From the IMG/VR virus record IMGVR_UViG_3300044769_000068, positions 36,620 to 100,619 of that record: a DNA stretch of 64,000 bases, one strand, 5' to 3'. The first letter of the stretch is position 1, and each line of letters starts with the position of its first letter. Source of the stretch: a virus. Shown piece by piece: positions 5,978 to 39,446 of the stretch. A model generated the notes under the pieces. The model was given only the letters and a program-made list of their open reading frames with translations. It searched no databases and was not told the origin of the DNA. Both the position numbers and the translations under genes were made by a program.

Positions 5978-6294
5978 TAAAGCAGCCCTGTCCGGCCAAC
6001 AACTTTCCCGCCTTGCTTGGCTGTTGCTTTTCCTGTCGACTGGCCACCGACAATTCCCTGAGGGCCGCCCTGCTTATTGCTGTATTTTCTATAGGCTTTA
6101 GCTTTAATGCTGTTGTTCATGTTAATGCCGCCGGCAAAGTTTATGACTTGATCCTTCTTGTAGATTTTCTGGCCGCACAAGCATCTGCCGATGTCGTCTT
6201 CGTCATAAAGCTCTCTGTATTCGCTGAAAGTAAATATCGTCTCTTCTGATTTCTTGCATTTTGGGCATTTGAATTCGTAAATAGGCATTACCAT
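5977..6294 (-). CDS. FmdB-family zinc-ribbon protein
   Basis: MPIYEFKCPKC...CLCG signature. Confidence 0.8.
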   Translation of the reverse strand: MVMPIYEFKCPKCKKSEETIFTFSEYRELYDEDDIGRCLCGQKIYKKDQVINFAGGINMNNSIKAKAYRKYSNKQGGPQGIVGGQSTGKATAKQGGKVVGRTGLL

Positions 6295-8480
6295 CTCTCC
6301 ATTTCATTCATGTTTTGACCCTTATAAAGTTTGTAACTAAAGTTGGGTCGCAGTAACGTTTGTACATCTGTTTTGAAAACTTCATTCTGAATTAGTGTGG
6401 CTCCCTCTGCAATTATGTCTGGAACAGTGGCGAACACGCCAAATTCTACTTTGGCTGCATCAAGATGTTCATTCGGCACATTAAAGACAGCGGCGTCGAC
6501 ATTAAGGATACATTGCTTTATTTTCAGCTGTCTCGTATTTGCCAAGAATCTAAAGCAGTTCAATACCATAAGATCTGCAGTAGTAGATTGGAATGGAAAA
6601 TTGTGAGCGCTTAAGAACGACTTCCATAGGTTGTCTTTAGTAAGATCGTCCTCACTGAATCTCCGCTTTCTGAAGGATGTCGAGAAAACGCAAGCATTCT
6701 TTTCAAGGTAATCCTTCAGGTTGTTCTTATATTCTAACATCTTTCCATACTTATTATAGAATGCTACCTTATAGCTCTTCACATCTTCAACTCGCACACC
6801 TGCTTCGTTTGCAATAGTCGAATCGCCGGCCAGATTTAGCATGCTTAGAACAAACAGCTTAGCAATGTTTCTTTCCTTTTCGCCTATTTCTCCGCTAAAT
6901 AGTTCTTTTGCGAACCGCATGTAGAAGTCGCCATGTTCATTTAGATCGTTTATCATGTTTTCGTCTTGAACAATTAAAGCGGCTGATCTTAAATCGGCAG
7001 AGTCTAGATCAAGGTATACTAATGTATGCTCTGGATCGGCTTTAAAATGCACAGAACATTTTGAGCCAATTTTCATTCCGTTGAGGAAGGGTTTTCCGTA
7101 GTATAGTCGACCTGAAGTAGCCGAAAATACGAACAATTCAGGGTGCAACTTGCCGTCGCTTGAATCTTGGCACTTCTTTAAGGTGGGCTTTACAATGTTG
7201 TCTAGTTCCCATCCAGAACAAGCAGTTGATCCCTTTGCTAGTCCTTCGCAGTCAACAGTTATTCCATTCCATTCGCTTTCAAGCTTGACAGCCATTATTC
7301 TAGGGACTACTCTAGATGTGAATTTGGCAGCAATTGGGTCGAGCATAAGTTCTTCGTGCAACAATTCTGTAAGGGCATGTTCTCCAGCCGCATCGATAGC
7401 AGCATAAACTAAACTATTTGTGGCAGCTTCCATTATCTGTTCTATTGTATACGTTTTGTAGTTTTCAATGTAGTGGATGTACTTCATAACAAAAGAGTAT
7501 TGCGGGTAGTTAAGCAAGTCTCTAGAAGCAGCTTTAAGATTATAGCCCTCTACTTTTCTATTTTCTGATAAGGCATGAAGAAGCTGCATTCCATCCCATA
7601 TTCTATTGCACTTTAGGAATTCTTTGAAGTCTCTTCCATAGAAGTTGCACAACGAAAAGATGTCAAAGCCACAGTTCCAGGCAATAAATGTTTTGGGCTT
7701 TTCAAACAGATACTTTTCCCAGAGATCCTTTATTTCTTTGGCTTGTCCATTGGCAAGTCCGGCTACAAGACCCGGCAAGCTAAGATTGAACGCGTGGCCT
7801 ACGTTACCTTCAGTAGCCATTGAACCAATTCTTACGCTGTGCTTATTCTTGTCCCATATTTGCAAGCCATTTGTTTCTACGTCTATTGATACTCTAGTCC
7901 AATCGGGCAAGTCGAACATATTGTACAAATAAGCTTTAATTTCGTCGTAGTTGAAGTAAATCTTTGTCCGAGGTGAGAAGCCGTTTTCGACAACATCAAT
8001 TGGCCATTTGTGTCTTTCGGAGACGCTTTTCTGGAGATACGCTTCTCTTACTTCCGATTTGAAGTTGTTAGTGGCATCGACTAATGTTGTCATGAATGAT
8101 TCGAACGCTAGAAAAGTTTCTGGCTTAGACATTGTGAAGTCTATCGGTGGCATGAAAGCAATAAAGTAGTGCTTCTTGTCTCTACGAACGAAATACGAGA
8201 ACTTATGGACGTCCCTTTTAGGGTTGCCCGCCATCTTATCAAATTCGTCTATGTCTCTAAGGATGTGTTTGTATAGATTGCTGCCGAATACAATAAGGAT
8301 CTCGTCGTCCTTGATGTTGTAGCCTCTCATGGAGTCTACTCTATTAGCAACCTTAAGATTGATTTCTAGTTCTTTGTTCTTTTCTTTAATGTCCTTAAAG
8401 ATCTTAACTAGTTTTTCTAGATTCTCTTTCTTTTTAGCTGGCTCACATATAATTGTAATCATTCCTGAACCCGTTTGCAT
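6288..8480 (-). CDS. Family A DNA polymerase-like protein: degenerate UDG-like N-terminus, 3'-5' exonuclease, truncated polymerase domain
   Basis: ExoI IDVETNG, ExoII WNCGFD, ExoIII YAAID; TSGRL, DLDSADLR, RNIAK, NFPFQSTTAD and NVDA map to PolA motifs. Confidence 0.8.
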   Translation of the reverse strand: MQTGSGMITIICEPAKKKENLEKLVKIFKDIKEKNKELEINLKVANRVDSMRGYNIKDDEILIVFGSNLYKHILRDIDEFDKMAGNPKRDVHKFSYFVRRDKKHYFIAFMPPIDFTMSKPETFLAFESFMTTLVDATNNFKSEVREAYLQKSVSERHKWPIDVVENGFSPRTKIYFNYDEIKAYLYNMFDLPDWTRVSIDVETNGLQIWDKNKHSVRIGSMATEGNVGHAFNLSLPGLVAGLANGQAKEIKDLWEKYLFEKPKTFIAWNCGFDIFSLCNFYGRDFKEFLKCNRIWDGMQLLHALSENRKVEGYNLKAASRDLLNYPQYSFVMKYIHYIENYKTYTIEQIMEAATNSLVYAAIDAAGEHALTELLHEELMLDPIAAKFTSRVVPRIMAVKLESEWNGITVDCEGLAKGSTACSGWELDNIVKPTLKKCQDSSDGKLHPELFVFSATSGRLYYGKPFLNGMKIGSKCSVHFKADPEHTLVYLDLDSADLRSAALIVQDENMINDLNEHGDFYMRFAKELFSGEIGEKERNIAKLFVLSMLNLAGDSTIANEAGVRVEDVKSYKVAFYNKYGKMLEYKNNLKDYLEKNACVFSTSFRKRRFSEDDLTKDNLWKSFLSAHNFPFQSTTADLMVLNCFRFLANTRQLKIKQCILNVDAAVFNVPNEHLDAAKVEFGVFATVPDIIAEGATLIQNEVFKTDVQTLLRPNFSYKLYKGQNMNEMERW

Positions 8481-9510
8481 CTAAAACATGCACACTTTCA
8501 AAGTTATAGTTGAAATAGAAGTTTTGAATTTGATTAGTAAAGCCCTTCCCAAATAGCTTTATAGCGCTGTTTGGTCTGATCAAATCTATGAACACCCGCT
8601 GACAGTTGTCTATGTCGTAGGGTAGAATGACTATGTCTGATGATCGCATGTTAACGGTACAAAACATATCGATGCCTTTTGTCATATTTGTTCTAAAATT
8701 GACACCCATACTAGAAGTGCAGGAGCCCTGTGGCGGAACGATGTGAAACCTTCTAGACGTTAGTGGGTCTTCTCCATGGAATTTGATTTCGCTTTCTATC
8801 TTATAGAAGAGACTCGCAAACAAATAGCTATAGAAAGACTTGTAATTGTTGACGTCCATTTCGTATCGGGCTCTAGTTCCCTTTTCCAGCTTGGCCTTGC
8901 GAACGTAGTTTTCGGACTCTTCACATAGACTAGTATTCGTCATGTGCGAGATAGCGCTTTTGCAATCGGCTATTCTGACATTACGGAGTTCCTTGCCTGG
9001 GTAGCCAATGGATGACCCGAACGTCAAGACTAAACTCATCAAATTACGAACTTTATCGTGTATGTCGTATTTAACTATTTCATCAATCCACGTGGCAGCA
9101 TCGTCTACAAGAGTATCGATCCCTTTCGAGGTTGTATCCATCGGCTTAATGAATTTGATTGCACCCAGTTCGTTCTCTATTGCGTCTTTGTAGGCTCTAT
9201 TGACAGTCCGTATGTCAGATAGCTTATGCTCATCGTCACCCTCTTTATTGTATCTTTTCACGATTTCTTTGTCATCAGCATACAATATGATCATGGCGTT
9301 GTTGCACAAGAAATTTATGAGATCCTGCAACCATACAGCATCGTTGTATTCTTTTTCTCCACGAAGACAATTGTACATCATCCGAGTCATGATGCTTCTA
9401 TCGGACACAAAGTAGCGCTTGCTGTAGGGATACTTGTGTAGAAGGTTCTTTTGGAGGGTCGATTTACCCGTCTTGTCTCCGCCTTCTATGACTATGTTGG
9501 GAGTATACAT
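8443..9510 (-). CDS. dNMP kinase fused to a thymidylate-synthase-fold domain (dNMP hydroxymethylase/methylase-like)
   Basis: N-terminal IEGGDKTGKST and SDRS; C-terminal ELRNV, SRRF, GSCTSS, MRSSDIVILPYD and SVHV. Confidence 0.78.
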   Translation of the reverse strand: MYTPNIVIEGGDKTGKSTLQKNLLHKYPYSKRYFVSDRSIMTRMMYNCLRGEKEYNDAVWLQDLINFLCNNAMIILYADDKEIVKRYNKEGDDEHKLSDIRTVNRAYKDAIENELGAIKFIKPMDTTSKGIDTLVDDAATWIDEIVKYDIHDKVRNLMSLVLTFGSSIGYPGKELRNVRIADCKSAISHMTNTSLCEESENYVRKAKLEKGTRARYEMDVNNYKSFYSYLFASLFYKIESEIKFHGEDPLTSRRFHIVPPQGSCTSSMGVNFRTNMTKGIDMFCTVNMRSSDIVILPYDIDNCQRVFIDLIRPNSAIKLFGKGFTNQIQNFYFNYNFESVHVLDANGFRNDYNYM

Positions 9511-9511
9511 A

Positions 9512-12500
9512 TTACCTCGAGATCTTATCGATTAGTTTAAGTTGTCTCAGCTGATTGTAAGAATTGGAGCGCTGGAGTTTGCCGATATACAAATTGTTCG
9601 TATCCATTATATCAATTTTCTGATCGCCATCTTGTATTTCTTTATCACCCCAGTAGTAAACACGGGACATAGATGAAATTCCATCCGATAGCCCAACAAC
9701 GTAATACGGCTTGCCCTTCTTAGATTTCTTCTTTTCGACAGTAGAGATTCTGAAGACAGCAGCTAATTCACCCTCATTTTCAAGATCGACAACATCTTCA
9801 AGCATCCGCAACTTAAAGTCAGGATATTTCTCTTTGATACGATCTCGTTGGCCTACGAAATAGGTGACTTCTGTAAAACTGACATTCATGAGCTCTATCT
9901 CGTTGGCGATAATATCAGAGAGACTCCAAGACACTGGATCTTCCTTGTATTTTCTAATCTTGACGAATTCGTTATACATGTCTGCCCTAGATACTCCGCC
10001 CGCAATAGAATCCAAAGCTCCCGACTGGATAAGTGCAACGATAACTCTTTTGTTTTTGAGCTGCTTGTGATCCGAGTTAATAAAGTCATTAATTCCGGTG
10101 AAGGGTCTGCGTCGTATAATTTCTGCAGCAGCATCGGGAGTTATTCCTTTCACAAATGTTAGTCCGAATCTGATATTTCCATCTTTATCAATGGAGAATT
10201 CAAAGTCTGATTCGTTGACATCGACTGGTAGAATTTTAACCTTATCTCGTTTGATGAACTTTCCTTCTGATTCATAATAGATCGCACTAGTCTGGATGCG
10301 AGAGATATACTTTGCGATAGTTGATGTCCCATACTTGTCTTCTTTTGATCGAGCAGTGTTATTAAGCAGCGCAGTATAGAACTCTATTCCATAGTGAGCC
10401 TTAAGCCACAATTCGCGGAATGAAGTATACGTATATGAGTCAGAATGACTTTTGTTGAACGCATATCTTGAAAAGGCTCGGATTTGTTCCCAAAGCTCTT
10501 TTGCGACCTCCGCTGGCATCTTCTTGCTTGCGTTAGTAACGAACTTGTGTTCCCACGAGTCAACTCTTTTGAGTCTGGCAGTTTCGTATTTAGTTGACCT
10601 CTCATATTTTACGAGGTCTTTTCTTGACTTGTTGATTTCAATCGGATCAAATTCACCGAGCTCTTTGAAAAGGCGCATGAAGTCTTCTTGATAAACAACA
10701 ATGCCATAAGTGCCTTTGAGATAATCGGCGTAGCTTTCGTGTGTAAGATCACGCCAGTTTCCTGCGGCTTTTCTCTTTGCAAATTCAACGTTCATTCCCA
10801 TGTCCAGAGGTCCCGGGCGGATAATGGCGTTGATGGCTGAAAGATCGTCAAAGCATTCTGGCTTGACATCAAGAATAGTCTTAAGGGCTAGATTAGATTC
10901 AAACTGAAACACTCCAAAGAGATCTCCCTTTCTGGCTAAGGCGTACGCTTCTTTTGAGTCAATATCGATTTTATCCCAGTCAATGTCCACTTTGTGTCGG
11001 CTGTTAATAAGACGCACGGTGTCATTAACAACGGCCAAATTATTAAGTCCAAGTATATCAAACTTAACAAATCCTTGACCAGTAAGTTCATGATAGTCTC
11101 CACCTTCTGTGTTGGCTGTAACGATAAATTCTTTAGATCTGATAAGTGGGATCCAGTCGTAGATTGTGACTCCAGATACTACTACGCCTGCCGCGTGTCT
11201 ACCAGTTGCCTTGATAGAGTTGCGGAGACGCTTAAACAATGTTTCTACATTAGGATTCTGTTCAAAAAACTTCTTAACCTTTGGGAAGTGCGACAACAGA
11301 TAATCATACGGCATGTTGTCTAGTTGTTCTTTCTTTCCTTCGGTTGTGTAGATAGTAAATGGAAGATCTTTTGTTATCTCATTAACTGTCTGGTAGTCGA
11401 GGTTGTAGATTCGTGAGGCGTCTTTAATGCAACCTTTTACCTTGCCAATGTGATAGTTTCCAATCGTGGCTACCTTATCGGCGCCATATTTGTCCACAAG
11501 ATATTGCTTGACCTCGTCACGCACCGCGGGCGAAAAATCGATATCGACGTCTGGAAGGTCTTTTCTGCCTTCATCAAGAAACCGTTCAAACAACAAGCCA
11601 TGTTTAATCGGATCGACATCTGTGATTTCTAGCAAGTAGTTAATAAGAGAACCTGCCGCCGAACCTCTGCCTGCGCCTACTTCATAGCGACCAAATTTCT
11701 GTTTAGTCCACTTGATCATGTCTTCTAGAATGAGGAAGTAGTCTACGAAGCCTAATTTGATAATAATATCATACTCATGTCTGCAACGCTGGCGATATAC
11801 TTCATTTTTGCTGAAGCCTTTGACGACAAGAGCGTCCGCTACTTTCTGATACAAAACTCTTGCGGCGTCTTCATAAAGCTTAGGGATCTTGAGGCTTGTA
11901 TCTAGTTGGAAGCTGTCTACTTTTGAGAAGACTTCATACGATCCGTTTATGGCCGCAGCTACGGCTTCTTTTTCGTCTGCTGGAGGGTTATCTCCGAACC
12001 ATCGTCCTTCTTTCCAGTCCTTTATGATCTGATCGAACGTCTTAAGATAGAGGTCCTTTACAACAAACTCCCACAGCTTTTCGTTTTCATTGTCCGCCTG
12101 ATCCTCTTCTGACACTTCTTCCTCTGATGGTTCTTTTTCCTTTTCTTCTGTGTACGACTTCTTTGTTTGAAGCAACAGAATAGCTTCATGCACCTTCTGG
12201 TCGTTCGGATAGAGGTAGTGAGCGTCCGTTGTTACTATCGGAGTGACTCCCATCTCCTTTGCAATAGCCCAAAGTTTTGGATTCAATCTCCACTGATGAG
12301 AATAGTCCATCGACATCAGTTCGATGTAGAAATTGTCACCAAATTCGTCTTTGTACTTTTTCACGTATGCTCTGGCTTCGTCCATCTTATCATGTTCTAA
12401 TAGACGGTTGAGCTCTCCTCCCGCGCATGCAGTCGAAACTATAATGCCCTCTTTGTTTTCTGACAACAACTTAAAGTCGATAAGAGGGAACCGATAGAAC

Positions 12501-13495
12501 GATTCGATAAATGACAGCGAAGTGATTTTGAATAGGTTCTTAAGCCCTGTGTAGTTCTTGGCGATGAGAAGAATGTGATGTCTAGGATTGCCGTGAATCT
12601 TGCGTTGTTCAACTGCGCCGTCTTCTTTGCTACCAATGAATGGCATGAGAGCAGCTCTATCAGCAATCATGTATGCTTCAGTCCCAAAAATTGGCTTGAT
12701 GCCAACTTTTCTGGCGGCTTCGTATTGCTTAAAGAAAACGGAGATGTTGCCATGGTTGGTAAGCGATACAGCAGGCGATTTGTGTTTGAGAGCCCATATG
12801 ATATGTTCTTCCGCGGTTCCAATTCCATCTCGGATAGAAAATTCATTGTGGACATGCAAGTTTACGAAATTCTTGACTTTGATCTTTTTGATTAATTCTT
12901 TGAGATGCGAAAAGTTGTCGCTGGCACCTACGCCGCCCTTTCTAGCAAAGAACGAAGGATGATAGGCTCTAGCAATTGTGTAGTTCCCATTCTTGACAGG
13001 GCCTGCGTAATGATCGAAGGCCAATCCAAAGATGTTGGAAACTGTTTCGCCTAAACATATGATAAGTTCGGGATCGACTATTTCAAGTTCTCTTACGAAC
13101 TTTTGAGAGATGCAAGTAGGTAAAACCTTTAGATCGATTTTGTTGTCTTCAGTTGAGCACTTCTGAATATTTGTAATGTAAACTGTTTCGAAAGAAAGAC
13201 CTACTTCTGCTAGCATTTCTTTCATCATATCATAATGGTTGCTGTCTTCTGGCCCGAACACGTGATTGCCTCGGCGATTATGTGAAGGATTCATTCCTAC
13301 TAACATAACACGCGCTCGCGGATAGCCGCTGGGCTTAACGAACTCTTTATTACATTCTAATTTGAGAAGTGGGCAGGCTTGGCATTCAACCGACGAAGTG
13401 TCTTCTATTGCGTCAACTATGTCAGCAAAATTTGAATCAATTTCTATTGGTTGTACTGCGTAACTAACTCCCGATATTGCTATTGCTTTCGTCAT
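9512..13495 (-). CDS. dnaE: DNA polymerase III alpha subunit with N-terminal family-4 uracil-DNA-glycosylase-like domain
   Basis: PHP (HVHNEFS..DG, TDAHY), GRGSAAGSL, PDVDIDF, GRHAAGVV, KFDILGL, FNKSHS; N-terminal CQAC..ITNIQKC..C..YHPS. Confidence 0.95.
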   Translation of the reverse strand: MTKAIAISGVSYAVQPIEIDSNFADIVDAIEDTSSVECQACPLLKLECNKEFVKPSGYPRARVMLVGMNPSHNRRGNHVFGPEDSNHYDMMKEMLAEVGLSFETVYITNIQKCSTEDNKIDLKVLPTCISQKFVRELEIVDPELIICLGETVSNIFGLAFDHYAGPVKNGNYTIARAYHPSFFARKGGVGASDNFSHLKELIKKIKVKNFVNLHVHNEFSIRDGIGTAEEHIIWALKHKSPAVSLTNHGNISVFFKQYEAARKVGIKPIFGTEAYMIADRAALMPFIGSKEDGAVEQRKIHGNPRHHILLIAKNYTGLKNLFKITSLSFIESFYRFPLIDFKLLSENKEGIIVSTACAGGELNRLLEHDKMDEARAYVKKYKDEFGDNFYIELMSMDYSHQWRLNPKLWAIAKEMGVTPIVTTDAHYLYPNDQKVHEAILLLQTKKSYTEEKEKEPSEEEVSEEDQADNENEKLWEFVVKDLYLKTFDQIIKDWKEGRWFGDNPPADEKEAVAAAINGSYEVFSKVDSFQLDTSLKIPKLYEDAARVLYQKVADALVVKGFSKNEVYRQRCRHEYDIIIKLGFVDYFLILEDMIKWTKQKFGRYEVGAGRGSAAGSLINYLLEITDVDPIKHGLLFERFLDEGRKDLPDVDIDFSPAVRDEVKQYLVDKYGADKVATIGNYHIGKVKGCIKDASRIYNLDYQTVNEITKDLPFTIYTTEGKKEQLDNMPYDYLLSHFPKVKKFFEQNPNVETLFKRLRNSIKATGRHAAGVVVSGVTIYDWIPLIRSKEFIVTANTEGGDYHELTGQGFVKFDILGLNNLAVVNDTVRLINSRHKVDIDWDKIDIDSKEAYALARKGDLFGVFQFESNLALKTILDVKPECFDDLSAINAIIRPGPLDMGMNVEFAKRKAAGNWRDLTHESYADYLKGTYGIVVYQEDFMRLFKELGEFDPIEINKSRKDLVKYERSTKYETARLKRVDSWEHKFVTNASKKMPAEVAKELWEQIRAFSRYAFNKSHSDSYTYTSFRELWLKAHYGIEFYTALLNNTARSKEDKYGTSTIAKYISRIQTSAIYYESEGKFIKRDKVKILPVDVNESDFEFSIDKDGNIRFGLTFVKGITPDAAAEIIRRRPFTGINDFINSDHKQLKNKRVIVALIQSGALDSIAGGVSRADMYNEFVKIRKYKEDPVSWSLSDIIANEIELMNVSFTEVTYFVGQRDRIKEKYPDFKLRMLEDVVDLENEGELAAVFRISTVEKKKSKKGKPYYVVGLSDGISSMSRVYYWGDKEIQDGDQKIDIMDTNNLYIGKLQRSNSYNQLRQLKLIDKISR

Positions 13496-14504
13496 CTGTA
13501 ATTTCCTTTATGAATGAGATTGCTTCCTGTAGGTTGTCTACGGGCTTGCATTCCTCAACGCTTTGCCATCCGCCATCGATATCATATTTGTTCGTTTCGT
13601 TTCTTACGTAAATGTTGCATACGTTAGGACGTTCAGCGGTATTAATAAGATTATATACATTATCTTCGATAAAGTACACCTCTTTGTTATTGAATCGATC
13701 GAAAAAGTACTTTTTCTCACCGAGGTCTGTGAAATGAATCATGTCTACCCATTGACTCATTCCTCTGTTGAACAACCACTCAACCGTATACATATACAGA
13801 ATAGGGTAAGTTTTGACGGGTCTATTGGTGAGAAGAGATACTATCCCTTTTTTGTGACAAATACGAAGAAGGTCTCTTGCGTTATCTACAGCGGGCAAAA
13901 TCATTTTAAATCCACAAAGTCGATATTCTTCTTTGAGTTCTTTATAGAGGTCTATGTTAGCACTTCTCCACGTGCAAAAGTCTTGAAACGTCTCAAACTT
14001 TCCGATGCCAATTTTATCTCCAAACCACGTTCTATATGCAAGCCCAATATCAGCTAATACGCCATCTATATCGATAATGAAAGTATACTGAGCGCTCTTG
14101 AATTTGTCGCTGTTCATGAAAAGCCGCTGATTGAATTTCTGGTCTATAGTCTTGTTTTTCATGTTTATTTTGCGGACTAACTCATCATAACTGATGTCAA
14201 ATTCGTGACAGACATTGAACGCGTATTTCATAATGTCCACTACAGCGTCAGCCGCTTCTACTTTTTGTAGAAGAAGAGAGTTAGCTTTGTGCTCTTTTGA
14301 AGGGTCCCAATCGAGAGTGTTCATGACATCAGTAACGTTCTTGTTGATGCCGATGCAATAATCCTTTATTCTATCGACATGCGTCTTGTTAGCGTATTCT
14401 ACTTGATTTATTTTGTCGAAGAAAACTTTTTGAAGATCATACAGATTTTTCATTCTTCTTCCCATTAAACTTTCTTGTATAGTTGTGAGCCCAATGGATA
14501 ACAT
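13464..14504 (-). CDS. Dimeric dUTPase/dCTPase-like (all-alpha NTP pyrophosphatase) domain fused to a HAD 5'-nucleotidase-like domain; probable start 14453
   Basis: N-terminal LDW....H, AVVDIMKY, KN..IDQK; C-terminal IDIDGVLAD, LTNRP, FIEDN. Confidence 0.72.
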   Translation of the reverse strand: MLSIGLTTIQESLMGRRMKNLYDLQKVFFDKINQVEYANKTHVDRIKDYCIGINKNVTDVMNTLDWDPSKEHKANSLLLQKVEAADAVVDIMKYAFNVCHEFDISYDELVRKINMKNKTIDQKFNQRLFMNSDKFKSAQYTFIIDIDGVLADIGLAYRTWFGDKIGIGKFETFQDFCTWRSANIDLYKELKEEYRLCGFKMILPAVDNARDLLRICHKKGIVSLLTNRPVKTYPILYMYTVEWLFNRGMSQWVDMIHFTDLGEKKYFFDRFNNKEVYFIEDNVYNLINTAERPNVCNIYVRNETNKYDIDGGWQSVEECKPVDNLQEAISFIKEITDDESNSNIGS

Positions 14505-15393
14505 CCTCAGTCTTTATGGAGTGATTCATTTGAGCATAGCGTCCCACTAACTTTATAGAACCAAGCTCTCTAAGCTTCAAGCTTCTTGATATTTGAGTAG
14601 CTGTTTTGATGCTATCCAATACCCATTCTCCGTAGATAGCAAGAAACGCTTCTGGAGTTTTTGTTTCATACACCCATTTGTCTAGTTCTGGTACATACGT
14701 TTTGCGGTGCCAAGGATCAGTAACACTGTAAATGTAATCGAACTGTCCTCTGCCCTTTTCGTCAACAAGAAAGAAATTCATGAGGTCTGGAGTTGTTGAG
14801 ATCTTAACTGTCACAGAAGTGTTGGACAACATCCCAGTTAAAGCGGGCAAAGGAATAGTTGATATGATATTGTCTCCGTAGAAAACGTCTTTATCCGTTG
14901 TCACTTTTCTATGTGAGATGTTCTTTATGTTAGCTATTATAATATGGTTGCTATCAGATTTTCCTGCTAAATCCAAACAGCGCTTAAGAAGTGATTTGCC
15001 CAATGCTACTTGAGAAACTTCAAACGCTGTGAAACTAGACTTCCCACCGCCGGTTAAATGTGATGATTCTGTTCCATTAGTTCCGTGTGCTTTGAAGGCA
15101 TATTTGTTCTTAAAGTCGTCGGTGGCAAAATTGCGAACGTCGTCGTTAATCTTATAGCCGATGAAGACTTCTCTTGTTTTAGTAGGAAACCCTAACCTAC
15201 GAAGTAAGGCTTCAGTGTCCTTGTTTTGGTGCAGGAATCTAGGGCCAAGTGGAAACTTTGTGTTAGTCTGGCTTGCGATGTTGTTCGTTATCACAAGGTT
15301 TCTGGTTCTAGTTGATTCTGCAAGGTAATGAAAGACTGTTAGTCCGGCAATACCTGATCCAAGGATCACATTGTCGTAGTTAGGGTTGGCCAT
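14437..15393 (-). CDS. FAD-dependent oxidoreductase, UDP-galactopyranose-mutase-like architecture
   Basis: ILGSGIAG dinucleotide-binding motif, LGPRFLH, IISTIPL, C-terminal VGRYAQMNH. Confidence 0.75.
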   Translation of the reverse strand: MANPNYDNVILGSGIAGLTVFHYLAESTRTRNLVITNNIASQTNTKFPLGPRFLHQNKDTEALLRRLGFPTKTREVFIGYKINDDVRNFATDDFKNKYAFKAHGTNGTESSHLTGGGKSSFTAFEVSQVALGKSLLKRCLDLAGKSDSNHIIIANIKNISHRKVTTDKDVFYGDNIISTIPLPALTGMLSNTSVTVKISTTPDLMNFFLVDEKGRGQFDYIYSVTDPWHRKTYVPELDKWVYETKTPEAFLAIYGEWVLDSIKTATQISRSLKLRELGSIKLVGRYAQMNHSIKTEDVIHWAHNYTRKFNGKKNEKSV

Positions 15394-16466
15394 TATTTCC
15401 TCGCATCGAATGCGTTGTCACCAAAGATAGCAAACAACAGGTCGTCCACACTCTGGTAGGCGTTGTTAAGTATGAATTCCTCGTCGAATAGAGCTTTGTC
15501 TTTATTGCTCAATTTATCGTAATCATTTTCTCCGTATTTAATCCACTCTGTAGGTCCTGGCATCTTAAACCCATGCTCTGCAAGCTCTTCATAGCTAGAG
15601 CAGCTCACATTAAATTCTGAATATTGTTCTTTAGTCGGCCATCTGCCACAGCAAGCAAATAGTGAACTAAAGTATTTTGTCATTCCTTCGGGACCTTCGT
15701 GATAGATACATCTCTTTGCACCATCGCATGCAGGCCGCAAATAGTTTGCTAATAGGGGGAATTTCCGTCCCACAAGCTCTCGAAGAGCAATATGGAGAGC
15801 AACTATCGAGCTTTCCTCGCAAGCCATTAGTCTCCGGCTGCACTGGCCCTTCAAGGCGAGATAGTTCTGTGTAAAGACGTATGAGTGATTTACGCTCATC
15901 GGGAGGAAAGCTCTCCCACTCTGCCATGACCCCTGACCAATCGAGATCGCTGATTCGTATAGGTCTTTCGTTGCTCTTATCCATTTTTCTACCTCGTATG
16001 CGAAAGCCGCATCCGTTTCCATTCTTTTGCAAACGTCCGGGTAAAATAGGAAATCTGCATCAAGTTTGTTGTTATCTCTTGTTCCAATAGAGGCGAAGGC
16101 GGTTCCGATTCGGACTCTTGCATGCTGGTCAAAAGTATGTCGTGGTGTCCCATTAACTTCGAAAGTGAATTGGACAGCTTCAGCAGCTTGAGGTAGGGTG
16201 TTTCCTGTGAGGACTGCAAGTACGATGCGATATCTGTTCTCAGGAGTAAGTCGTTCCCATTTTCCAGTTGATCCGGTTTCATTGTCGCCCCACGTCGCTG
16301 CAGCCATCGAAGCGATTGCACGGTACGGATTCTTTGTGCAATCATTCATCGCAACATACAGCGCATCCAGTGAATTTTTCCAACTATATGTCTTCTTGGG
16401 AGCCTGAGATGGCAAGGTTCCCATTGCTTCTCTCATGTTGTCTACTTGATCTTTATAGTCACTCAT
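15393..16466 (-). CDS. Divergent ThyX-family flavoprotein
   Basis: FTFEVNGTPRHTFDQHARVRIGTAFASIGTRD, GRAFLP and SRRL align with the canonical ThyX at 18527; several catalytic positions differ. Confidence 0.75.
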   Translation of the reverse strand: MSDYKDQVDNMREAMGTLPSQAPKKTYSWKNSLDALYVAMNDCTKNPYRAIASMAAATWGDNETGSTGKWERLTPENRYRIVLAVLTGNTLPQAAEAVQFTFEVNGTPRHTFDQHARVRIGTAFASIGTRDNNKLDADFLFYPDVCKRMETDAAFAYEVEKWIRATKDLYESAISIGQGSWQSGRAFLPMSVNHSYVFTQNYLALKGQCSRRLMACEESSIVALHIALRELVGRKFPLLANYLRPACDGAKRCIYHEGPEGMTKYFSSLFACCGRWPTKEQYSEFNVSCSSYEELAEHGFKMPGPTEWIKYGENDYDKLSNKDKALFDEEFILNNAYQSVDDLLFAIFGDNAFDARK

Positions 16467-16821: not shown

Positions 16822-17054
16822 GTAACTTCCCCACGATCTTTATCTTTAAGATATTGATTTGACATTTCTCTGACTACTTTAATAGAAGAGCCCTTTGGTA
16901 CAATAACAGATTTATTGTTTGGAAATAAGCGCTTAAGCGATACGTGTGCGTTGTCCATTTCTTGCATCGTCAAGTCTCTGTCGATTTCTAGTACAACAAT
17001 GTCATTCGGCTCTAGAGAAATGATTTTAGCTTTTTCTACGTTGATATCTCTCAT
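16818..17054 (-). CDS. Hypothetical protein
   Basis: 78 aa ORF overlapping both neighbours by 4 nt. Confidence 0.7.
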   Translation of the reverse strand: MRDINVEKAKIISLEPNDIVVLEIDRDLTMQEMDNAHVSLKRLFPNNKSVIVPKGSSIKVVREMSNQYLKDKDRGEVT

Positions 17055-17707
17055 GTAAGTTCTCCCTGATCAACAATAACTCTAGCGACTTCTTTCTTTG
17101 AAAGATGCGACGTGTCGATAAAGAGGGTGTTCAATCCAAACAACTGAATAAATTCGATGTACTTATTTTCGATAGCTCTTTGTGCTTTCATTCTTTCTTC
17201 TACTGTCTCTGGTTCGGGAACAAAGCCTTTGCTATCTCTGATTCCGAATCCTTTGGCAACGTCCTTTTTAAGACGCTCTATAATTCTATTGCGTAAAACA
17301 TCGTCGTCTTTTACAATCAAAAGAAAGATCTTGTAGGGAAAGTTTGTTTTGAGAGCGCTAACGAATTCATGATAGATTTGTTTTGCATATAGTTCATTAT
17401 ATACCATTTCTGATAAGAAACAGCGATCTAATATGACTTTCTTATCTTTCACTGACATGAGATATTTCATACATGTCATGTGTGAGATTTGATAAACGAC
17501 GTCCCTAGGGATGTGAATCGATGGAATTGCACCTTCGATCTTTGCCCACGTTCCGTTTGTTGGCGGAGGGATATTATATTGGAAAGTGTAATGCTGCGAA
17601 TCGTTAAATCGTGGATGATAAAACGTGATGTAAGACTTCTTTTTCTTTAAGATTTCTAGCGTTGTTGTTTTGCCTACGTAATTTGCGCCTTCGATTATGT
17701 GCAGCAT
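17051..17707 (-). CDS. Thymidylate-kinase-like dNMP kinase
   Basis: IIEGANYVGKTT P-loop; ILDRCFLSEMVY. Confidence 0.82.
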   Translation of the reverse strand: MLHIIEGANYVGKTTTLEILKKKKSYITFYHPRFNDSQHYTFQYNIPPPTNGTWAKIEGAIPSIHIPRDVVYQISHMTCMKYLMSVKDKKVILDRCFLSEMVYNELYAKQIYHEFVSALKTNFPYKIFLLIVKDDDVLRNRIIERLKKDVAKGFGIRDSKGFVPEPETVEERMKAQRAIENKYIEFIQLFGLNTLFIDTSHLSKKEVARVIVDQGELT

Positions 17708-17720
17708 GCTATTCTCCCAT

Positions 17721-18188
17721 TCAAACTTGTATGTAGACGATTTCTACGCCCGCTTCACTGAAAAGTTCTTCGGCTAGTTTCGTTTGTTCTTTCCATCTTT
17801 CTGCGAAATCGTTGTTGATTTTGGGTGAAACAACCTTAAAAATTCCAGATTGAATAATATGGACGGCGCATCTTTCGCAAGATTGTCCGGGCCAATTGTA
17901 CAGCGTGTATCCGTCGAGCCTCTCTCTAGATGAAAGAATAGCATTCATTTCGCAATGGATAGTTCTCTTATATTTCTCTTCTCTATTGCTTAGAAGCTCT
18001 TCCCGATCTTTTATCGCCCTTGGAAATCCATTATATCCTACTGCGGCGACGGTTGAATCTGGCCGGACAATAACACACCCAGTTTTCGTCGACGGATCTT
18101 TTGACCAATTAGACACGTGTTCGGCTAGATAAAGAAATCGAACATGCTTTTTAGAAATGCTATTAATTGGGAAGATTTCTATGGTCAT
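17721..18188 (-). CDS. dCMP deaminase
   Basis: SKDPSTKTGCVI, GYNGFP, HCEMNAI and SCERC zinc motifs. Confidence 0.92.
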   Translation of the reverse strand: MTIEIFPINSISKKHVRFLYLAEHVSNWSKDPSTKTGCVIVRPDSTVAAVGYNGFPRAIKDREELLSNREEKYKRTIHCEMNAILSSRERLDGYTLYNWPGQSCERCAVHIIQSGIFKVVSPKINNDFAERWKEQTKLAEELFSEAGVEIVYIQV

Positions 18189-18526: not shown

Positions 18527-19153
18527 TTACTCCTCGAATTTAATGTCTGCAAATATGTTGGCGGCACCAATTCTCATCACTTGCTCCCACATCTCTTTTG
18601 CCATGTTTCTGATTTCCCATTGAGCGTGTTTAGAAGTCCTGAGTTTGAAGAAATGGCGGAGCTCTCTAAAATTCATTGTAATAATGATTTCGGAGCAACA
18701 CGCGTTGGGTAGAACAAATCTAGCATCTTCTCCCTTGACGCCCATCTTCAATAGTTCGTTATATGTATTCCAAGCGAATAACATGGCATTCTCAAACTTG
18801 GCTCTGGCCATTTGATTCTGGCTACTAACTCCGATGTTCTCTTTATTGTCTAAGATGCTTGGAGGCGTTACATAGTTGGGCTCTGATTCTTTGACATACC
18901 GCTGGCTTCTTTGCGAGTAACTAGCAATCCGATGCCTAACCAGCTGATGAGTAAGAGCTCTGGAAACCCCACCCACTCTATAAGTGACACTAGCATGCTC
19001 AAGAACAGATTCATGGCCGCTCCTTATTAGATGGTCTATGATGCGGACATGACTACCAGGGCTCTTCTTTTCAAACGAGTCGTAGCAGATTCTGGCAGCC
19101 TCTTCGATTAATAGTTCGGGCGCTGGTGTGAATGCAATGATTTCTACTTTCAT
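18527..19153 (-). CDS. thyX: Flavin-dependent thymidylate synthase
   Basis: GHESVLEH, SRALTHQLVRHRIASYSQRSQRY, ARFVLPN, AQWEIR. Confidence 0.96.
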   Translation of the reverse strand: MKVEIIAFTPAPELLIEEAARICYDSFEKKSPGSHVRIIDHLIRSGHESVLEHASVTYRVGGVSRALTHQLVRHRIASYSQRSQRYVKESEPNYVTPPSILDNKENIGVSSQNQMARAKFENAMLFAWNTYNELLKMGVKGEDARFVLPNACCSEIIITMNFRELRHFFKLRTSKHAQWEIRNMAKEMWEQVMRIGAANIFADIKFEE

Positions 19154-21441
19154 ATTGAACAGGCCGCTCCAGGAGGGCTAGATCCACAAACATTGCAGAT
19201 AAAGCACTTCCCGTCCTTTACCATAGAATTTTTAGCGTTACAATTGGGACATTCTTCGTCGGCTTCTTCTATTTCTTCCTCTTCTTCCTCTTCATTCTTG
19301 ATGAGTCCGATTTCAATGAGACAATCCCAGATGCATTCTTTCATGGCTGATAAGAAATGAGCGTATGTCTTGCCGCGATACATAAATTTCTCGTCCATCT
19401 CTACATAGTCCATGTCCTCGAGCTCCTGAAGGATTTCGAGCAGTTTCTCGAGGTTCTTTTCCTTATTGAACATAATAGAAAGAAGTCTGCAATACGGCAG
19501 CATGTTTTTGTAGAAATCAACATCTCTAGAGACAACAAACACTTGAGACACCTGGTTGTTGTTATAGGTTACATGGACGTGTGCGCTTGGAAGTCCCGAG
19601 CTTCTTTTGATTTGATAAGTAAAGCTTCTGCGTCTGTAGCCGTCTTCCCTTGTTTCAGGTCTAGCATCATCGTCAGTTAATATTGATTGAATGGTTCCTT
19701 CTCTAAACGTAGTGAGTCCTTTGATAGACATGTCTGACGTGACGACATCGAACATGAACTTTTTGAAGGAATCGAAATCCGTTCCTTCTGGGAAGTTAAT
19801 AGTTTTTGAGATGCTGTTATCGACATACTTCTGGATGGTATTCTGCATTCGCAAGTGGCCTTGAAGCGATACGTCTTTGGTGGTTTGAAAATAGTCAGGT
19901 CGTTCGCCGTAAATTTTATCAAATCCCGCTGACTTGAAATATTTGTAGGAATAGTCAAGTAAATCAAATTGTCGTGTAAGATTTCCTTGATCATCGCGCA
20001 TTCTCCTCTTCTGCTTCAATGAAAATATCGGTTCGATTCCTGACGATACATTATTCAATAGTAAGGAGATTGTTCCAGCAGGTTGACATGTTAGGATGGA
20101 ACAGTTTCTAATGCCGTGTTGTTCCATTTCCGCTTTAATCCCGTCTGGCAGACTTTTGATGAATTTTCCCGCCATAAACTTATCCCTATCGTATTTAGGG
20201 AAAGGGCTCTTTAATTTCGCCAATTCAATAGACGCTTCATACGCGGCGTTTCTGATCGTTTGCATTAAAACATCAACGAACGAAATAGCTTGATCAGAAT
20301 CGTACTTGATCTTTAGCATCGTTAACATGTCTGCTAATCCCGTGATGCCCAAACCAATTCGTCGATCGGCTATAGCTACCTTTTCGTTCTGCTTCAACGG
20401 ATAGTTGGTTACATCAAGAATTGTGTCTAGCATGTAGACTAGACTCTTAACTGTCTGCTTTAGCCCTTCGATATCGACTTCTTGACTTATGAATGGATTT
20501 TTGACGAATGTGGGAAGAACGACCATTCCGAGGTCACAACATCCCCACGCAGGTAAGGGTATCTCACCACAAGGATTGGTAGATTCGATTTTTTGGTAGT
20601 AATATGTATTGGACACTTCATTGACTCGGTCCTTGAAGAAAATTCCTGGTTCGTTATAGTCGTAAGCGTTGGCCACAAATTTTTCGAATACAATTCTTGC
20701 CTTAAGCTTTCCATAGACTTTTCCGTTATGCTTGAGTTCATAGTCTTTGTCCGCCTTTAGAGCGTCTATAAAGTCATTGGTGATGCCAATAGACACATTA
20801 AAATTAGTTAAGCCTGAGTTTTTCTTCGCGGTGATGAACTCTAATATGTCAGGGTGATTGACGTCAAGAATAGCAATGCCGGCGCCTCTACGGTTTCCTG
20901 CTGATTTCATGGTCGCGATCATACTATCCCACGTATCCATAAAAGAGAGGGGACCGGAGGCGGTTGAGTTTACGCCCTTGACGTGTGCGCCTTTAGGACG
21001 AATACTAGAAAAGTTAGTTCCAAATCCACCACCTGCCTGCTGAATCTTAGAGGCGGCTTCAAAGCTATCTCCGAGGATAGAGTCAATGGAGTCTTCAATT
21101 GGCACTACAAAGCAGTTGAGGGCTGTCAATTTGACGCATGGATTGCCCAACGCAAGCAGAGCTCTGCCGGCGACTATTCCCCTCCGCTCTGCCATTATTT
21201 TGTAGAATTCTTCTTCTATGGGATCTTGCAAGACTCTGTCGTTTATTCCTTTGACAAACCCTGCAGCTAATGCTTTAGCAACTCGCCTGAAAGCTTCAGA
21301 AGGTTCTGATTCTAGAGCCCTTGTGGAAGCCATAGGATCGTTCGATTGTGGCGCTTCTCTAACAGCGTACTTCTCAAGAAATATTTCTTTATTAAAATCG
21401 GGCAGAATTTCAGGCCCTTTCTTCATTTCAAGCTCTGTCAT
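19150..21441 (-). CDS. nrdJ: Class II (adenosylcobalamin-dependent) ribonucleotide reductase
   Basis: NCFV, GGGFG, RRGA, TNPCGE, QPAGTIS, DNSISKT and a C-terminal zinc ribbon; no beta subunit in the window. Confidence 0.88.
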   Translation of the reverse strand: MTELEMKKGPEILPDFNKEIFLEKYAVREAPQSNDPMASTRALESEPSEAFRRVAKALAAGFVKGINDRVLQDPIEEEFYKIMAERRGIVAGRALLALGNPCVKLTALNCFVVPIEDSIDSILGDSFEAASKIQQAGGGFGTNFSSIRPKGAHVKGVNSTASGPLSFMDTWDSMIATMKSAGNRRGAGIAILDVNHPDILEFITAKKNSGLTNFNVSIGITNDFIDALKADKDYELKHNGKVYGKLKARIVFEKFVANAYDYNEPGIFFKDRVNEVSNTYYYQKIESTNPCGEIPLPAWGCCDLGMVVLPTFVKNPFISQEVDIEGLKQTVKSLVYMLDTILDVTNYPLKQNEKVAIADRRIGLGITGLADMLTMLKIKYDSDQAISFVDVLMQTIRNAAYEASIELAKLKSPFPKYDRDKFMAGKFIKSLPDGIKAEMEQHGIRNCSILTCQPAGTISLLLNNVSSGIEPIFSLKQKRRMRDDQGNLTRQFDLLDYSYKYFKSAGFDKIYGERPDYFQTTKDVSLQGHLRMQNTIQKYVDNSISKTINFPEGTDFDSFKKFMFDVVTSDMSIKGLTTFREGTIQSILTDDDARPETREDGYRRRSFTYQIKRSSGLPSAHVHVTYNNNQVSQVFVVSRDVDFYKNMLPYCRLLSIMFNKEKNLEKLLEILQELEDMDYVEMDEKFMYRGKTYAHFLSAMKECIWDCLIEIGLIKNEEEEEEEIEEADEECPNCNAKNSMVKDGKCFICNVCGSSPPGAACSI

Positions 21442-21917
21442 TTAGTCACTCCGTCTGTTTTCTTCTTCTTCCAATCACGTTTCATAACTTCCTCAGCTGT
21501 GGAGAATAGAGCTTTCCCGAAATCAATGCCTGCGTGAGAACATAGTTGCATTAAATAAACTACTGTATCTGCTACTCCATCGGCTAAATCATCTAGGGCT
21601 TTTTCATCCATGCCAGCTTGATGGCGCCTTATTTTTTGCCGGGCTTTCAATACGACGTGAGCTACTTCTCCCACTTCTTCAGCGGCTCCCAACGCCATCC
21701 ATTCAATGCCGGTGTCGCGCTTCTTGAAGTTTTTCTGTTGCCAATCAAATAGCTGTTTCTGCAGTCTAGTAAGAGCTTTCACCGCGCACGTTGTATTCCT
21801 CTCTTCATCGTTGATCGGAAAGGCGTGCTTGGGCTTGGGAAAATTATTGCAGGACATTTGGCGTATTCTCACTTCCGGGCCCACCAGTTTCGACAGCTTT
21901 CTTTGCGTCTTCTTCAA
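21438..21917 (-). CDS. MazG-like nucleotide pyrophosphohydrolase (true start possibly 21857)
   Basis: EEVGEV...DGVADTVVYL pattern. Confidence 0.85.
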   Translation of the reverse strand: MKKTQRKLSKLVGPEVRIRQMSCNNFPKPKHAFPINDEERNTTCAVKALTRLQKQLFDWQQKNFKKRDTGIEWMALGAAEEVGEVAHVVLKARQKIRRHQAGMDEKALDDLADGVADTVVYLMQLCSHAGIDFGKALFSTAEEVMKRDWKKKKTDGVTK

Positions 21918-37982: not shown

Positions 37983-39446
37983 ATGGATGAAGTACAGGGT
38001 TTTGGATTAGGATCCATGCAGGATGTCCAGGCCATTAACAAGGCCGTTGACTCGTTGTATAACGCGGGCACGGGAACCGGTTTGGCAGCTGGAGCTTCTT
38101 TTGGTTCCGACAATTATGGTAGCACTGGTGCGCAGTCCCTCAGAGTTGAATCTCTGGACTCGTCACTCAAGGTTATCACGTTCACTGATAAGCACATCAA
38201 CTTCTGGAAAGACATTCCGAAGTCACCTGCTTATTCAACGGTTGAAGAATACAACCAGTTAACCTCTTACGGCTCGCAGACGGGCGGATTTGTTTCTGAA
38301 GGCGAATTGCCATATCAGACAAACTCCGACTACGCCAGACGAGCAGCTCTGGTCAAGTTCGTTGGAACGACCAGATCAGTAAGCCACCCATTAACCTTGG
38401 TCCGTACGATGGTTCCTGATGTTATTGCGCAGGAAAACTCAAATGGTATCATGTGGATGCTCCGCCAGATTGAAAATTCTCTCTTCTGGGGCAACGATGT
38501 GGGTCTTACGGGTGAATACGTGGAATGGGCGGGCCTTGATAAGCTTCTTGGCGTAGGTCCAAACACGACTTCCGGTACAGGCGCTGGTAACACCTTCGAC
38601 CTCCGCGGAACAACTTTCTCCTCAACTCCTTTCACGACAATCGTCAATGACTTGGCACAGACAGTAGTTGATAACTTCGGTTTCCCAACTGACATTTATC
38701 TTCCATTCCCTGTCCTTGCAAAGATCAACGAAGAGTTCGCTGGAACCGCTGCACAGAGAGTAATTCTCCCAACAGCCTCTGGTAATACTCAGGTCAACAT
38801 TAACATTGACGGCCTTATGACTCAGGCTGGTCGAGTTAATCTCAAGCCAACCTTCTTCTTGCAGAAGACAAGAGTAGTTCCTGGTGCCGGTGACGGCGCT
38901 GCTAAGGTTCTTAAGTCTGGCGCTCTTGCGGTCGGAGGTACTTCTGTCACTATGTCAGCTGCAGGTACTCCTACAACTGGCTACTCAGTGGCTGCTGGTG
39001 ACTATGAAGGATCAGTCACTTTCAGAAACAAGTATGGTGAATCCGGCTCCGTCGCTCAGGGCGGTGGTACAATCACCACAAGCGGAACTAACACTCTTAG
39101 ATTCGCTATCACAGCTCCTCCAACCGATGCAGAATTCGTAGACCTCTTCATCACTCAGGTCGACGACGCTGCTGGCGTGAAGTATTGGGTTCAGACAATG
39201 GCCCTTACTACAATAGCTGCAGGCCCAACTAACTACGATTACAATGGTATTCGTATGCCTAACACCTATACCTGCTTCATCGGCCAGATGACTCCTGACG
39301 TTCTTACCTTCCGTCAGTTGGCTCCGCTGGTAAAGATGGATCTAGCAACGATCGCTCCGGCTTACAAGTGGATGATCCTGCTCTACGGTGTTCCTGTTCT
39401 CTTCGCTCCTTTGAAGTGGACCAGAGTTATTAACGTAAAGTATTAA
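37983..39446 (+). CDS. Major capsid protein
   Basis: LRVESLDSSLK, STVEEYNQ, FVSEGELP, IENSLFWG, LAPLVKMDLA; Herelleviridae-like pattern; strong GGAGG RBS. Confidence 0.93.
   Translation: MDEVQGFGLGSMQDVQAINKAVDSLYNAGTGTGLAAGASFGSDNYGSTGAQSLRVESLDSSLKVITFTDKHINFWKDIPKSPAYSTVEEYNQLTSYGSQTGGFVSEGELPYQTNSDYARRAALVKFVGTTRSVSHPLTLVRTMVPDVIAQENSNGIMWMLRQIENSLFWGNDVGLTGEYVEWAGLDKLLGVGPNTTSGTGAGNTFDLRGTTFSSTPFTTIVNDLAQTVVDNFGFPTDIYLPFPVLAKINEEFAGTAAQRVILPTASGNTQVNINIDGLMTQAGRVNLKPTFFLQKTRVVPGAGDGAAKVLKSGALAVGGTSVTMSAAGTPTTGYSVAAGDYEGSVTFRNKYGESGSVAQGGGTITTSGTNTLRFAITAPPTDAEFVDLFITQVDDAAGVKYWVQTMALTTIAAGPTNYDYNGIRMPNTYTCFIGQMTPDVLTFRQLAPLVKMDLATIAPAYKWMILLYGVPVLFAPLKWTRVINVKY

Follow-up and report, generated by a model that had tools for sequence, protein, structure and literature searches.

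The question raised by a 64,000-nucleotide stretch of IMG/VR virus record IMGVR_UViG_3300044769_000068 (positions 36,620 to 100,619 of that record; hereafter the window) is which nucleotide is made by the product of one of its genes, P0001, in which a P-loop nucleoside monophosphate (NMP) kinase is joined to a compact thymidylate synthase (TS)-fold domain. Base modifications of phage DNA defeat restriction enzymes and other defences and are a source of biotechnology enzymes, and the known pyrimidine routes begin with a TS homolog and a separate kinase. We favour, with a probability of roughly 0.55, the reading that the fusion enzyme modifies deoxycytidine monophosphate (dCMP) at C5 and then readies the product for DNA synthesis by phosphorylation, as judged from its sequence. 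The gene occupies positions 8443..9510 of the minus strand, on which all features described below lie unless stated otherwise; it encodes 355 amino acids (aa) plus a stop codon, and homologs of 69–74% identity have the same start. Its ATG is located one base past the stop codon of its upstream neighbour, a DnaE-type polymerase gene, and its last 38 nt are shared with the start of the gene for a family A DNA polymerase (PolA).

To the N-terminal domain, residues 1–148 (9067..9510), a YorR/Tmk-like P-loop deoxynucleoside monophosphate (dNMP) kinase was assigned by VIA-align, by a family profile compared with PDB and by a weak Pfam match, and the compact TS fold of residues 149–355 (8446..9066) was recognised using AlphaFold2 (AF2), Foldseek, VIA-align, hhalign and HMMER. 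The AF2 model of the fusion protein, built on an 84-sequence alignment, comprises two domains, with a predicted local distance difference test (pLDDT) score of 90.8 and a predicted template modelling (pTM) score of 0.89. The original prediction, made from the letters of the window, had described a P-loop NMP kinase joined to a TS-fold domain, and this architecture was borne out by AF2, Foldseek and VIA-align; the two strings it quoted are present at residues 262–267 (GSCTSS) and 288–299 (MRSSDIVILPYD). The best-ranked matches listed by Foldseek against PDB all belonged to the TS superfamily and were headed by AfhB of phage HY126 (9iqu/9iqc; E 4e-6 for 9iqu), T4 dCMP hydroxymethylase gp42 (dCH; 1b5d) and MilA. 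VIA-align of residues 148–355 gave Z 13.0 for MilA (168 residues aligned), Z 12.7 for the dCMP hydroxylase AfhB (175/217 aligned) and about Z 12 for many TS entries (161 aligned, root-mean-square deviation (rmsd) 3.0), with rmsd values of 3.0–3.4 over 161–175 aligned residues across the superfamily. By its modelled fold and predicted active-site residues, the domain is a member of the TS-fold superfamily. At 206 aa it is smaller than ThyA (264 aa), gp42 (246 aa) and RB69 gp48 (238 aa), and in marine relatives it is shorter still, about 155 aa.

The active-site residues were mapped by hhalign of the C-domain family with E. coli ThyA, T4 gp42 and RB69 gp48, the sequences of which were taken from annotated records. 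The match had a probability of 96% and an E value of 3e-9 over ThyA residues 121–212. A tree with ThyA, gp42 and SPO1 enzymes would be unreliable at 12–15% identity over about 100 alignable columns, and the HMMER ranking given below takes its place. Ser252-Arg253-Arg254 (8749..8757) corresponds to ThyA S125-R126-R127 and contains the phosphate-binding Arg pair, which in TS is donated across the dimer. Cys264 (8719..8721) occupies, by both hhalign and HMMER, the nucleophile position of ThyA C146 and T4 dCH C148, in agreement with the earlier proposal of a probable catalytic Cys in GSCTSS. Arg289-Ser290-Ser291-Asp292 (8635..8646) is aligned to ThyA R166-S167-C168-D169, an assignment consistent with conservation, His341 (8488..8490) to H207, and P297-Y298-D299 to P175-F176-N177, which places Asp299 (8614..8616) at the base-specificity residue, N177 in ThyA and D179 in T4 dCH. 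Tyr227 (8830..8832), in a low-confidence part of the hhalign alignment, is probably the equivalent of ThyA Y94 and T4 dCH Y96. Conservation was counted over 84 family sequences, about 20% identical to the window protein: R253, C264, R289, S290 and D299 are invariant, and R254 (81 of 84), Y227 (Tyr in 81), H341 (His in 83), R273 and S339 nearly so.

The placement of Asp299 was supported by a second line of comparison. When a 50-sequence profile of the C-domain was searched against all PDB sequences with HMMER, the best match among solved structures was T4 dCH (1b5d, 6a9a; E 9.2e-6), followed by its D179N chain (E 3.2e-4), 5 bits below the wild type, and AfhB (E 2.8e-3); E. coli TS was not significant (E 0.2–0.3), and a 5-sequence profile had found no match in PDB where the 50-sequence domain profiles succeeded. 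The lower score of the D179N chain indicates that the Asp column of the family sits on D179. In the AF2 model D299 lies in the first turn of helix 296–310, just past the strand carrying Arg289 and Ser290, which is consistent with this mapping. The original prediction had placed an Asp at N177/D179 and had named its misalignment as what would refute the idea; at the level of profile alignment hhalign and HMMER agree on the position, and no such misalignment was found. The N177D change gives dCMP specificity (PMC13326640; PMC6400193). Because the Asp is invariant and the nearest solved relatives by sequence are dCMP-specific phage enzymes and not ThyA, a cytosine nucleotide is the best inference for the substrate.

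The resemblance to known dCMP-modifying enzymes extends beyond this residue. T4 gp42 and the window protein have in common the TS fold, the SRR pair, the Cys-Thr nucleophile motif, the NMRS-D motif, the S-x-H motif and Asp at both the D169/D171 and the D179 positions. An Arg following the Cys strand is present in the window protein, T4 gp42 and RB69 gp48, but not in ThyA. AfhB, RB69 gp48 and DLP3 gp80 likewise display a compact TS fold, a short C-terminus, Asp at N177 and a residue other than Tyr at Y209.

The kinase domain (residues 1–148) is structurally closest in VIA-align to YorR (Z 12.5), S. aureus Tmk (Z 12.3) and M. mycoides deoxyadenosine kinase (dAK; Z 12.0), and its 50-sequence family profile matched YorR with E 1e-16 and Tmk with E 1e-7 (HMMER against PDB). 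In the curated libraries (Pfam, PHROGs and NCBIfam) the signal from the fusion protein was confined to the N-terminal third and consisted of weak thymidylate-kinase matches only: Pfam Thymidylate_kin at E 4.5e-4 and 20.4 bits, under the gathering cut-off of 27 and beginning at profile position 81; TIGR00041 at E 1.2e-5 and 25.1 bits, against a cut-off of 83; and PHROG 761 at E 1.8e-7. The P-loop GGDKTGKS (residues 10–17; 9460..9483) carries a Tmk-type Asp; in alignments that included YorR and Aquifex Tmk, Asp37-Arg38 (9397..9402) falls on the DR(Y/F) motif known from both kinases, and Arg86...Gly91-Asp92 (9235..9255) forms a LID-like R-x4-G-D segment aligned to KKRLRVRGDE of YorR; G10, D12, G15, K16, D37, R38 and R86 are invariant in the 84 sequences. 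YorR, from the SPbeta prophage of B. subtilis (PDB 2axp/3kb2), and bacterial Tmk share with the fusion kinase a P-loop with Asp of the EGxDxxGK(S/T)T type, the DR motif and the RxxxRGD LID segment. In thymidylate kinase the P-loop Asp has a role in recognition of the 3'-OH. The fusion kinase differs from both in being 148 aa long, in missing the base-binding helices of Tmk and in being joined to a TS fold. To our knowledge, the substrate of YorR has not been established.

Taken as an enzyme, the fusion protein could work as follows. Arg253 and Arg254, probably reaching in from the other subunit of a TS-like dimer, for which the conserved SRR motif is an indirect sign, together with Arg289 and Ser290 would bind the 5'-phosphate of dCMP, Asp299 would read and protonate N3/N4 of cytosine, and Cys264 would attack C6, enabling C5 to accept a substituent. 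The YorR/Tmk-like kinase, using ATP, would then raise the 5-substituted dCMP to the diphosphate, a step that kinases of the host are not expected to perform, and the modified diphosphate would reach the phage DnaE and PolA encoded on either side. Synthesis and subsequent phosphorylation of a 5-substituted dCMP is proposed on three grounds: nucleophile, phosphate ligands and Asp never vary in the family, the partner domain is a Tmk-type kinase, and two polymerase genes flank the fusion gene. The logic would be that of the T4 pathway, in which dCMP is modified and then handled by a dedicated kinase, the separate dNMP kinase gp1; here, unlike in T4, the kinase is fused and is YorR/Tmk-like instead of gp1-like. 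By analogy with the known phage pairs of a dCMP-modifying TS homolog and a dNMP kinase, the protein may do in a single chain the work of T4 gp42 and gp1, or that of RB69 gp48 and gp159. The coupling is of consequence in the known systems, where TS homologs that modify dCMP produced a UV-visible base peak in plasmid DNA only if the cognate dNMP kinase was present as well; without the kinase, nothing beyond a trace in mass spectrometry was obtained (PMC13326640).

The fusion is characteristic of a sizeable viral family. Close homologs are few, four at 69–74% identity, but 37 relatives were found in a HMMER scan of 1.8 billion representatives, and a profile search revealed at least 384 clusters, mostly of 300–310 aa, in Tara and other marine metagenomes, with no informative names; both domains are common to all of these relatives. 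Genomic context was compared in 49 loci: 43 from IMG/VR, five retrieved through protein identity, and the window itself. All 49 encode both domains, as a single open reading frame (ORF) in 48 and as two adjacent ORFs in the remaining one, L033, in which the kinase and TS-fold ORFs overlap (L033:9983-10450 and L033:10438-11085), an arrangement that is either genuine or due to a frameshift or an error in sequencing. Structural neighbours in the ESM Atlas included four all-viral hypothetical clusters with 78, 228, 198 and 55 members (about 560); a search of the same resource by sequence features gave no usable match. One of the relatives of the whole module, at 70% identity, lies on a 154-kb contig (GCA_016276955.3, JAEHJW030014998.1) within a large multi-contig assembly, where that contig is probably a passenger of phage origin.

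A second kind of kinase–TS fusion was found in the ESM Atlas, a viral cluster of 437-aa proteins named 'Thymidylate kinase/Thymidylate synthase domain-containing protein', present in viruses only and with the same domain order. PF00303 is assigned to 100% of its members and PF02223 to 39%. It differs from the window family in having a full-length TS recognised by Pfam, and the template modelling (TM) scores to the model of the window protein were 0.52/0.44. The existence of this cluster suggests that a kinase–TS fusion arose more than once, or that the window family is a reduced descendant. We found no publication on the 437-aa cluster, nor any paper on a kinase–TS fusion or on the family of the window protein.

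The phage is a myovirus, as indicated by its capsid, sheath, portal and terminase genes, and its record is 116 kb long and 71% complete. The major capsid protein (37983..39446, plus strand) shares about 38–42% identity with its counterparts in Herelleviridae (SPO1, SP-10 and CP-51 relatives). This makes the phage distantly related to a group known for thymidine replacement and hypermodification, yet DnaE and PolA replace the SPO1-type polymerase set. The window itself is a replication and nucleotide-metabolism module, and the strand of the fusion gene also bears genes for DnaB helicase, a small haloacid dehalogenase (HAD) phosphatase, ribonucleotide reductase and a MazG-like protein.

The upstream gene (9512..13495) encodes a DnaE-type polymerase of 1327 aa with an N-terminal uracil-DNA glycosylase (UDG)-like domain and adjoins the fusion gene in 47 of the 49 loci; the downstream PolA gene lies at 6288..8480. 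The UDG-family domain of DnaE was seen as a precomputed Pfam PF03167 assignment in a 70%-identity relative (L001:6013-9999), and the DnaE proteins of marine relatives, about 1170–1190 aa long, had no UDG match. Further upstream, at 13464..14504, a 346-aa protein combines a four-helix N-terminal domain with a HAD domain resembling 5'(3')-deoxyribonucleotidases. The HAD domain (residues 137–338) was matched by VIA-align to 3bwv (Z 16.0) and to human cdN/mdN (Z about 14.7), with an AF2 pLDDT of 85.7. The four long helices of residues 1–135 possibly form, according to the model, an all-alpha NTP pyrophosphatase-like domain, and the whole protein could be a dNTP/dNMP pool-clearing enzyme. It is kept in 26 of the 49 loci, and such a co-conserved pool-editing neighbour supports the favoured reading. 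A 318-aa protein encoded at 14437-15393 and earlier labelled UGM-like had no meaningful match in Pfam, PHROGs or NCBIfam and occurs in 9 of the 49 loci.

Two flavours of ThyX are encoded nearby. A long divergent ThyX paralog (15393..16466) is present in 31 of the 49 loci and is located directly downstream of the fusion gene in one subclade. This paralog family, which includes L042:10929-11927, L014:10972-11790 and L003:2997-3992, has proteins of 315–357 aa with a C-terminal extension of about 120 aa; the SQRSQRY motif is replaced by AAQCTGDR with a conserved Cys in marine members and by ASIGTRD in the window, where RHR reads RVR. The canonical ThyX (18527..19153), together with a separate Tmk (17051..17707) and a dCMP deaminase (17721..18188), makes up a complete dTMP/dTDP route. 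Canonical ThyX and the paralog both occur in all four of the large relatives (176–240 kb, one of them complete), with no ThyA in any; likewise, no ThyA, trimeric dUTPase or dihydrofolate reductase was found in the 71%-complete 116-kb record. The presence of canonical ThyX in the window and in the four large relatives implies that dTMP can be made without the fusion enzyme. Other genes that recur among the 49 loci, at distances of up to 10 kb from the fusion gene, encode DnaE (47), dCMP deaminase (37), thymidine kinase (TK; 35), NDP-sugar epimerase (30) and a nucleoside deoxyribosyltransferase-like protein (25). Since the loci belong to a single lineage with conserved gene order, such co-occurrence does little by itself to establish a functional link.

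A number of observations weigh against the proposed C5 modification of dCMP. The original prediction had noted that the domain appears short in the folate-binding region, and this is indeed the case. In TS, folate is bound by E58, I79/W80/W83 and F176, with closure by Y209 and the C-terminus. In T4 dCH, tetrahydrofolate (THF) is contacted by Tyr56, Glu60, Ile81/Trp82, Phe174, Tyr218 and Arg220, of which Y218 and R220 touch the pterin (PMC6400193). In the window protein Leu343, two residues past His341, replaces ThyA Y209 and T4 Y218, Ala345 stands at the position of T4 R220, and just 14 residues follow His341, the C-terminal tail being absent. No equivalent of W80/W83 (T4 Trp82) was found in the shortened segment from the first sheet to Y227. 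In a low-confidence part of the alignment, Ala206 falls at the position of the catalytic Glu58/Glu60 with no clear Glu equivalent, and Y202 may equal T4 Y56. The water-activating acidic position L143/D145 is Gln or Gly (Q261 or G262, in PPQG before S-C), in a place where the marine consensus reads DDSC, with Asp at that position; the D171 equivalent is retained as D292. Overall identity to T4 gp42 is about 14%. The TS-fold domain is not matched by PF00303 in Pfam even at E 10, PF00303 was likewise unmatched in a six-frame family search of the record, and residues 150–355 have no match in Pfam, PHROGs or NCBIfam. The kinase, for its part, is some 55 residues short where Tmk, past its P-loop helix and ahead of the DR motif, has the base-binding segment, and as a result its acceptor is not settled by sequence. 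Beyond the protein, the 71%-complete 116-kb record yielded no glycosyltransferase of the GT2 family (PF00535), and neither dCTPase candidate of the window gave a significant BLASTP match to T4 gp56 (the deoxyribonucleotidase fusion of 13464-14504, E 0.27; the MazG-like protein of 21438-21917). Finally, tblastn of P0001 against 50,697 INPHARED records at E 1e-3 revealed no cultured phage with the gene; megablast of the region against cultured phages found nothing, and tblastn of a marine member recovered short kinase-like stretches only.

These features also set the domain apart from the described classes. The absence of a PF00303 match rules out a TS of the curated family, a T4-type dCH is argued against by the apparent loss of several THF contacts and by the loss of D145, and the signature of 5-hydroxy-dCMP synthases is incomplete, since the window protein has no D169N. 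With the folate elements reduced, methylation, hydroxymethylation, flavin-dependent hydroxylation or another reaction are all candidate chemistries. For the favoured reading, a hydroxymethyl group derived from methylene-THF (CH2-THF), as in T4 gp42, is a tentative suggestion from sequence comparison, preferred among the described reactions because the pterin-contacting Asp is kept (D292 = D169/D171) and T4 dCH is the best match. Within that reading flavin-dependent hydroxylation is a clearly less probable route than hydroxymethylation, and the remaining probability is kept for chemistry not yet described, because no known signature fits fully. That the compact TS fold might have given up the classical use of folate and attach to dCMP a C5 group not yet described, perhaps with the help of the co-conserved long ThyX paralog, and that the fused kinase would then commit the product to DNA, is an idea that we hold to be rather doubtful.

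Unlikely, but sharing with the favoured reading the logic of a modified dCMP followed by a kinase step, is the possibility that the TS-fold domain is a flavin/O2-dependent 5-hydroxylase of the AfhB or RB69 gp48 type, with 5-hydroxy-dCMP serving as an anchor for glycosylation. AfhB was the top Foldseek match and had the largest aligned fraction; the domain is like RB69 gp48 in its compactness, in how little follows the SAH motif and in the non-Tyr residue at Y209, and NDP-sugar epimerases are conserved beside the marine genes. Moreover, D169N plus N177D is the published mark of flavin-dependent 5-hydroxy-dCMP synthases (PMC13326640), and this pair is present in most relatives: at the D169-equivalent position the 84 sequences have Asn in 58, Asp in 22, the window protein included, Glu in three and His in one. 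The window protein, however, carries D292 and D299, so that the diagnostic position retains Asp in it and its clade, has no Glu at the L143 position and is fused to a kinase, features in which it differs from the 5-hydroxy-dCMP synthases. The HMMER score of AfhB is also below that of T4 dCH, and since Asp and Asn alternate among close relatives, the signature may not transfer to this family.

More improbable still, in our view, is that the TS-fold domain performs no C5 transfer and instead lends the kinase its nucleotide binding or specificity, or serves as a regulatory sensor. Such a role could compensate for the base-binding segment that the kinase is missing, the pTM of 0.89 suggests fixed packing of the two domains, the cofactor-binding elements of TS are mostly gone, and the marine versions are no longer than about 155 aa. 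But the Cys, the Tyr94 equivalent and the His207 equivalent are kept in 81–84 of the 84 sequences at about 20% identity, which is hard to explain without catalysis, and a phosphate clamped by four Arg/Ser ligands would be unavailable for phosphoryl transfer.

We give slightly less credence again to a different role for the kinase, either upstream, as a deoxynucleoside kinase (dNK) supplying dCMP, or on the new C5 substituent, which it would turn into a leaving group, like 5-HMUDK on DNA. Its acceptor site is undefined, dNK-family proteins are among the structural neighbours (the dAK noted above), deoxynucleoside kinases also matched in the profile search against PDB, and base-directed kinases do occur in phage hypermodification pathways (PMC8989533). 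Against this, the kinase is of Tmk type in its invariant DR motif and in the Asp of its P-loop, no Pfam HMUDK match was obtained, and a TK is already encoded in marine relatives. The empty tblastn search of INPHARED, which includes SP-10, means in addition that the known 5-HMUDK phages are not detectably similar, no relationship to M6 gp54, SP10 gp186 or ViI gp67 having emerged.

Action on dUMP, giving SPO1-like 5-hydroxymethyl-dUMP, or methylation of dCMP to supply dTMP via the deaminase, as in XP12, is the least credible proposal, for although the capsid is about 40% identical to Herelleviridae that include the 5-hydroxymethyl-dU phages SPO1 and SP-10, the set of deaminase, nucleotidase, kinase and TS homolog resembles the SPO1 pathway (PMC8989533) and dCMP deaminase is co-conserved in 37 of the 49 loci, the N177 position is an invariant Asp, reductive methylation needs a closed folate pocket that the TS-fold domain does not have, and the canonical ThyX and Tmk of the window, ThyX in all four large relatives and TK in marine ones already cover dTMP synthesis, so that thymine is not being kept out.

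In this family two steps are combined in one small protein, with a TS fold cut to 155–206 residues in which the nucleophile and the putative cytosine-reading Asp are kept. If the enzyme is active, it would provide a single-gene handle for making modified dCDP in vivo, and would test how minimal a TS scaffold for C5 chemistry can be and which cofactor is still usable. It would also single out a large set of abundant marine phages as probable bearers of modified cytosine. The phage of the window and hundreds of mostly marine viral relatives, whose proteins of this family are all labelled hypothetical, probably have modified cytosine in their DNA. If the doubtful idea of an undescribed C5 substituent is true, a large clade of mostly marine, uncultured, DnaE-encoding myoviruses of 150–240 kb, and with them the Herelleviridae-like phage of the window, would have an unknown modified cytosine.

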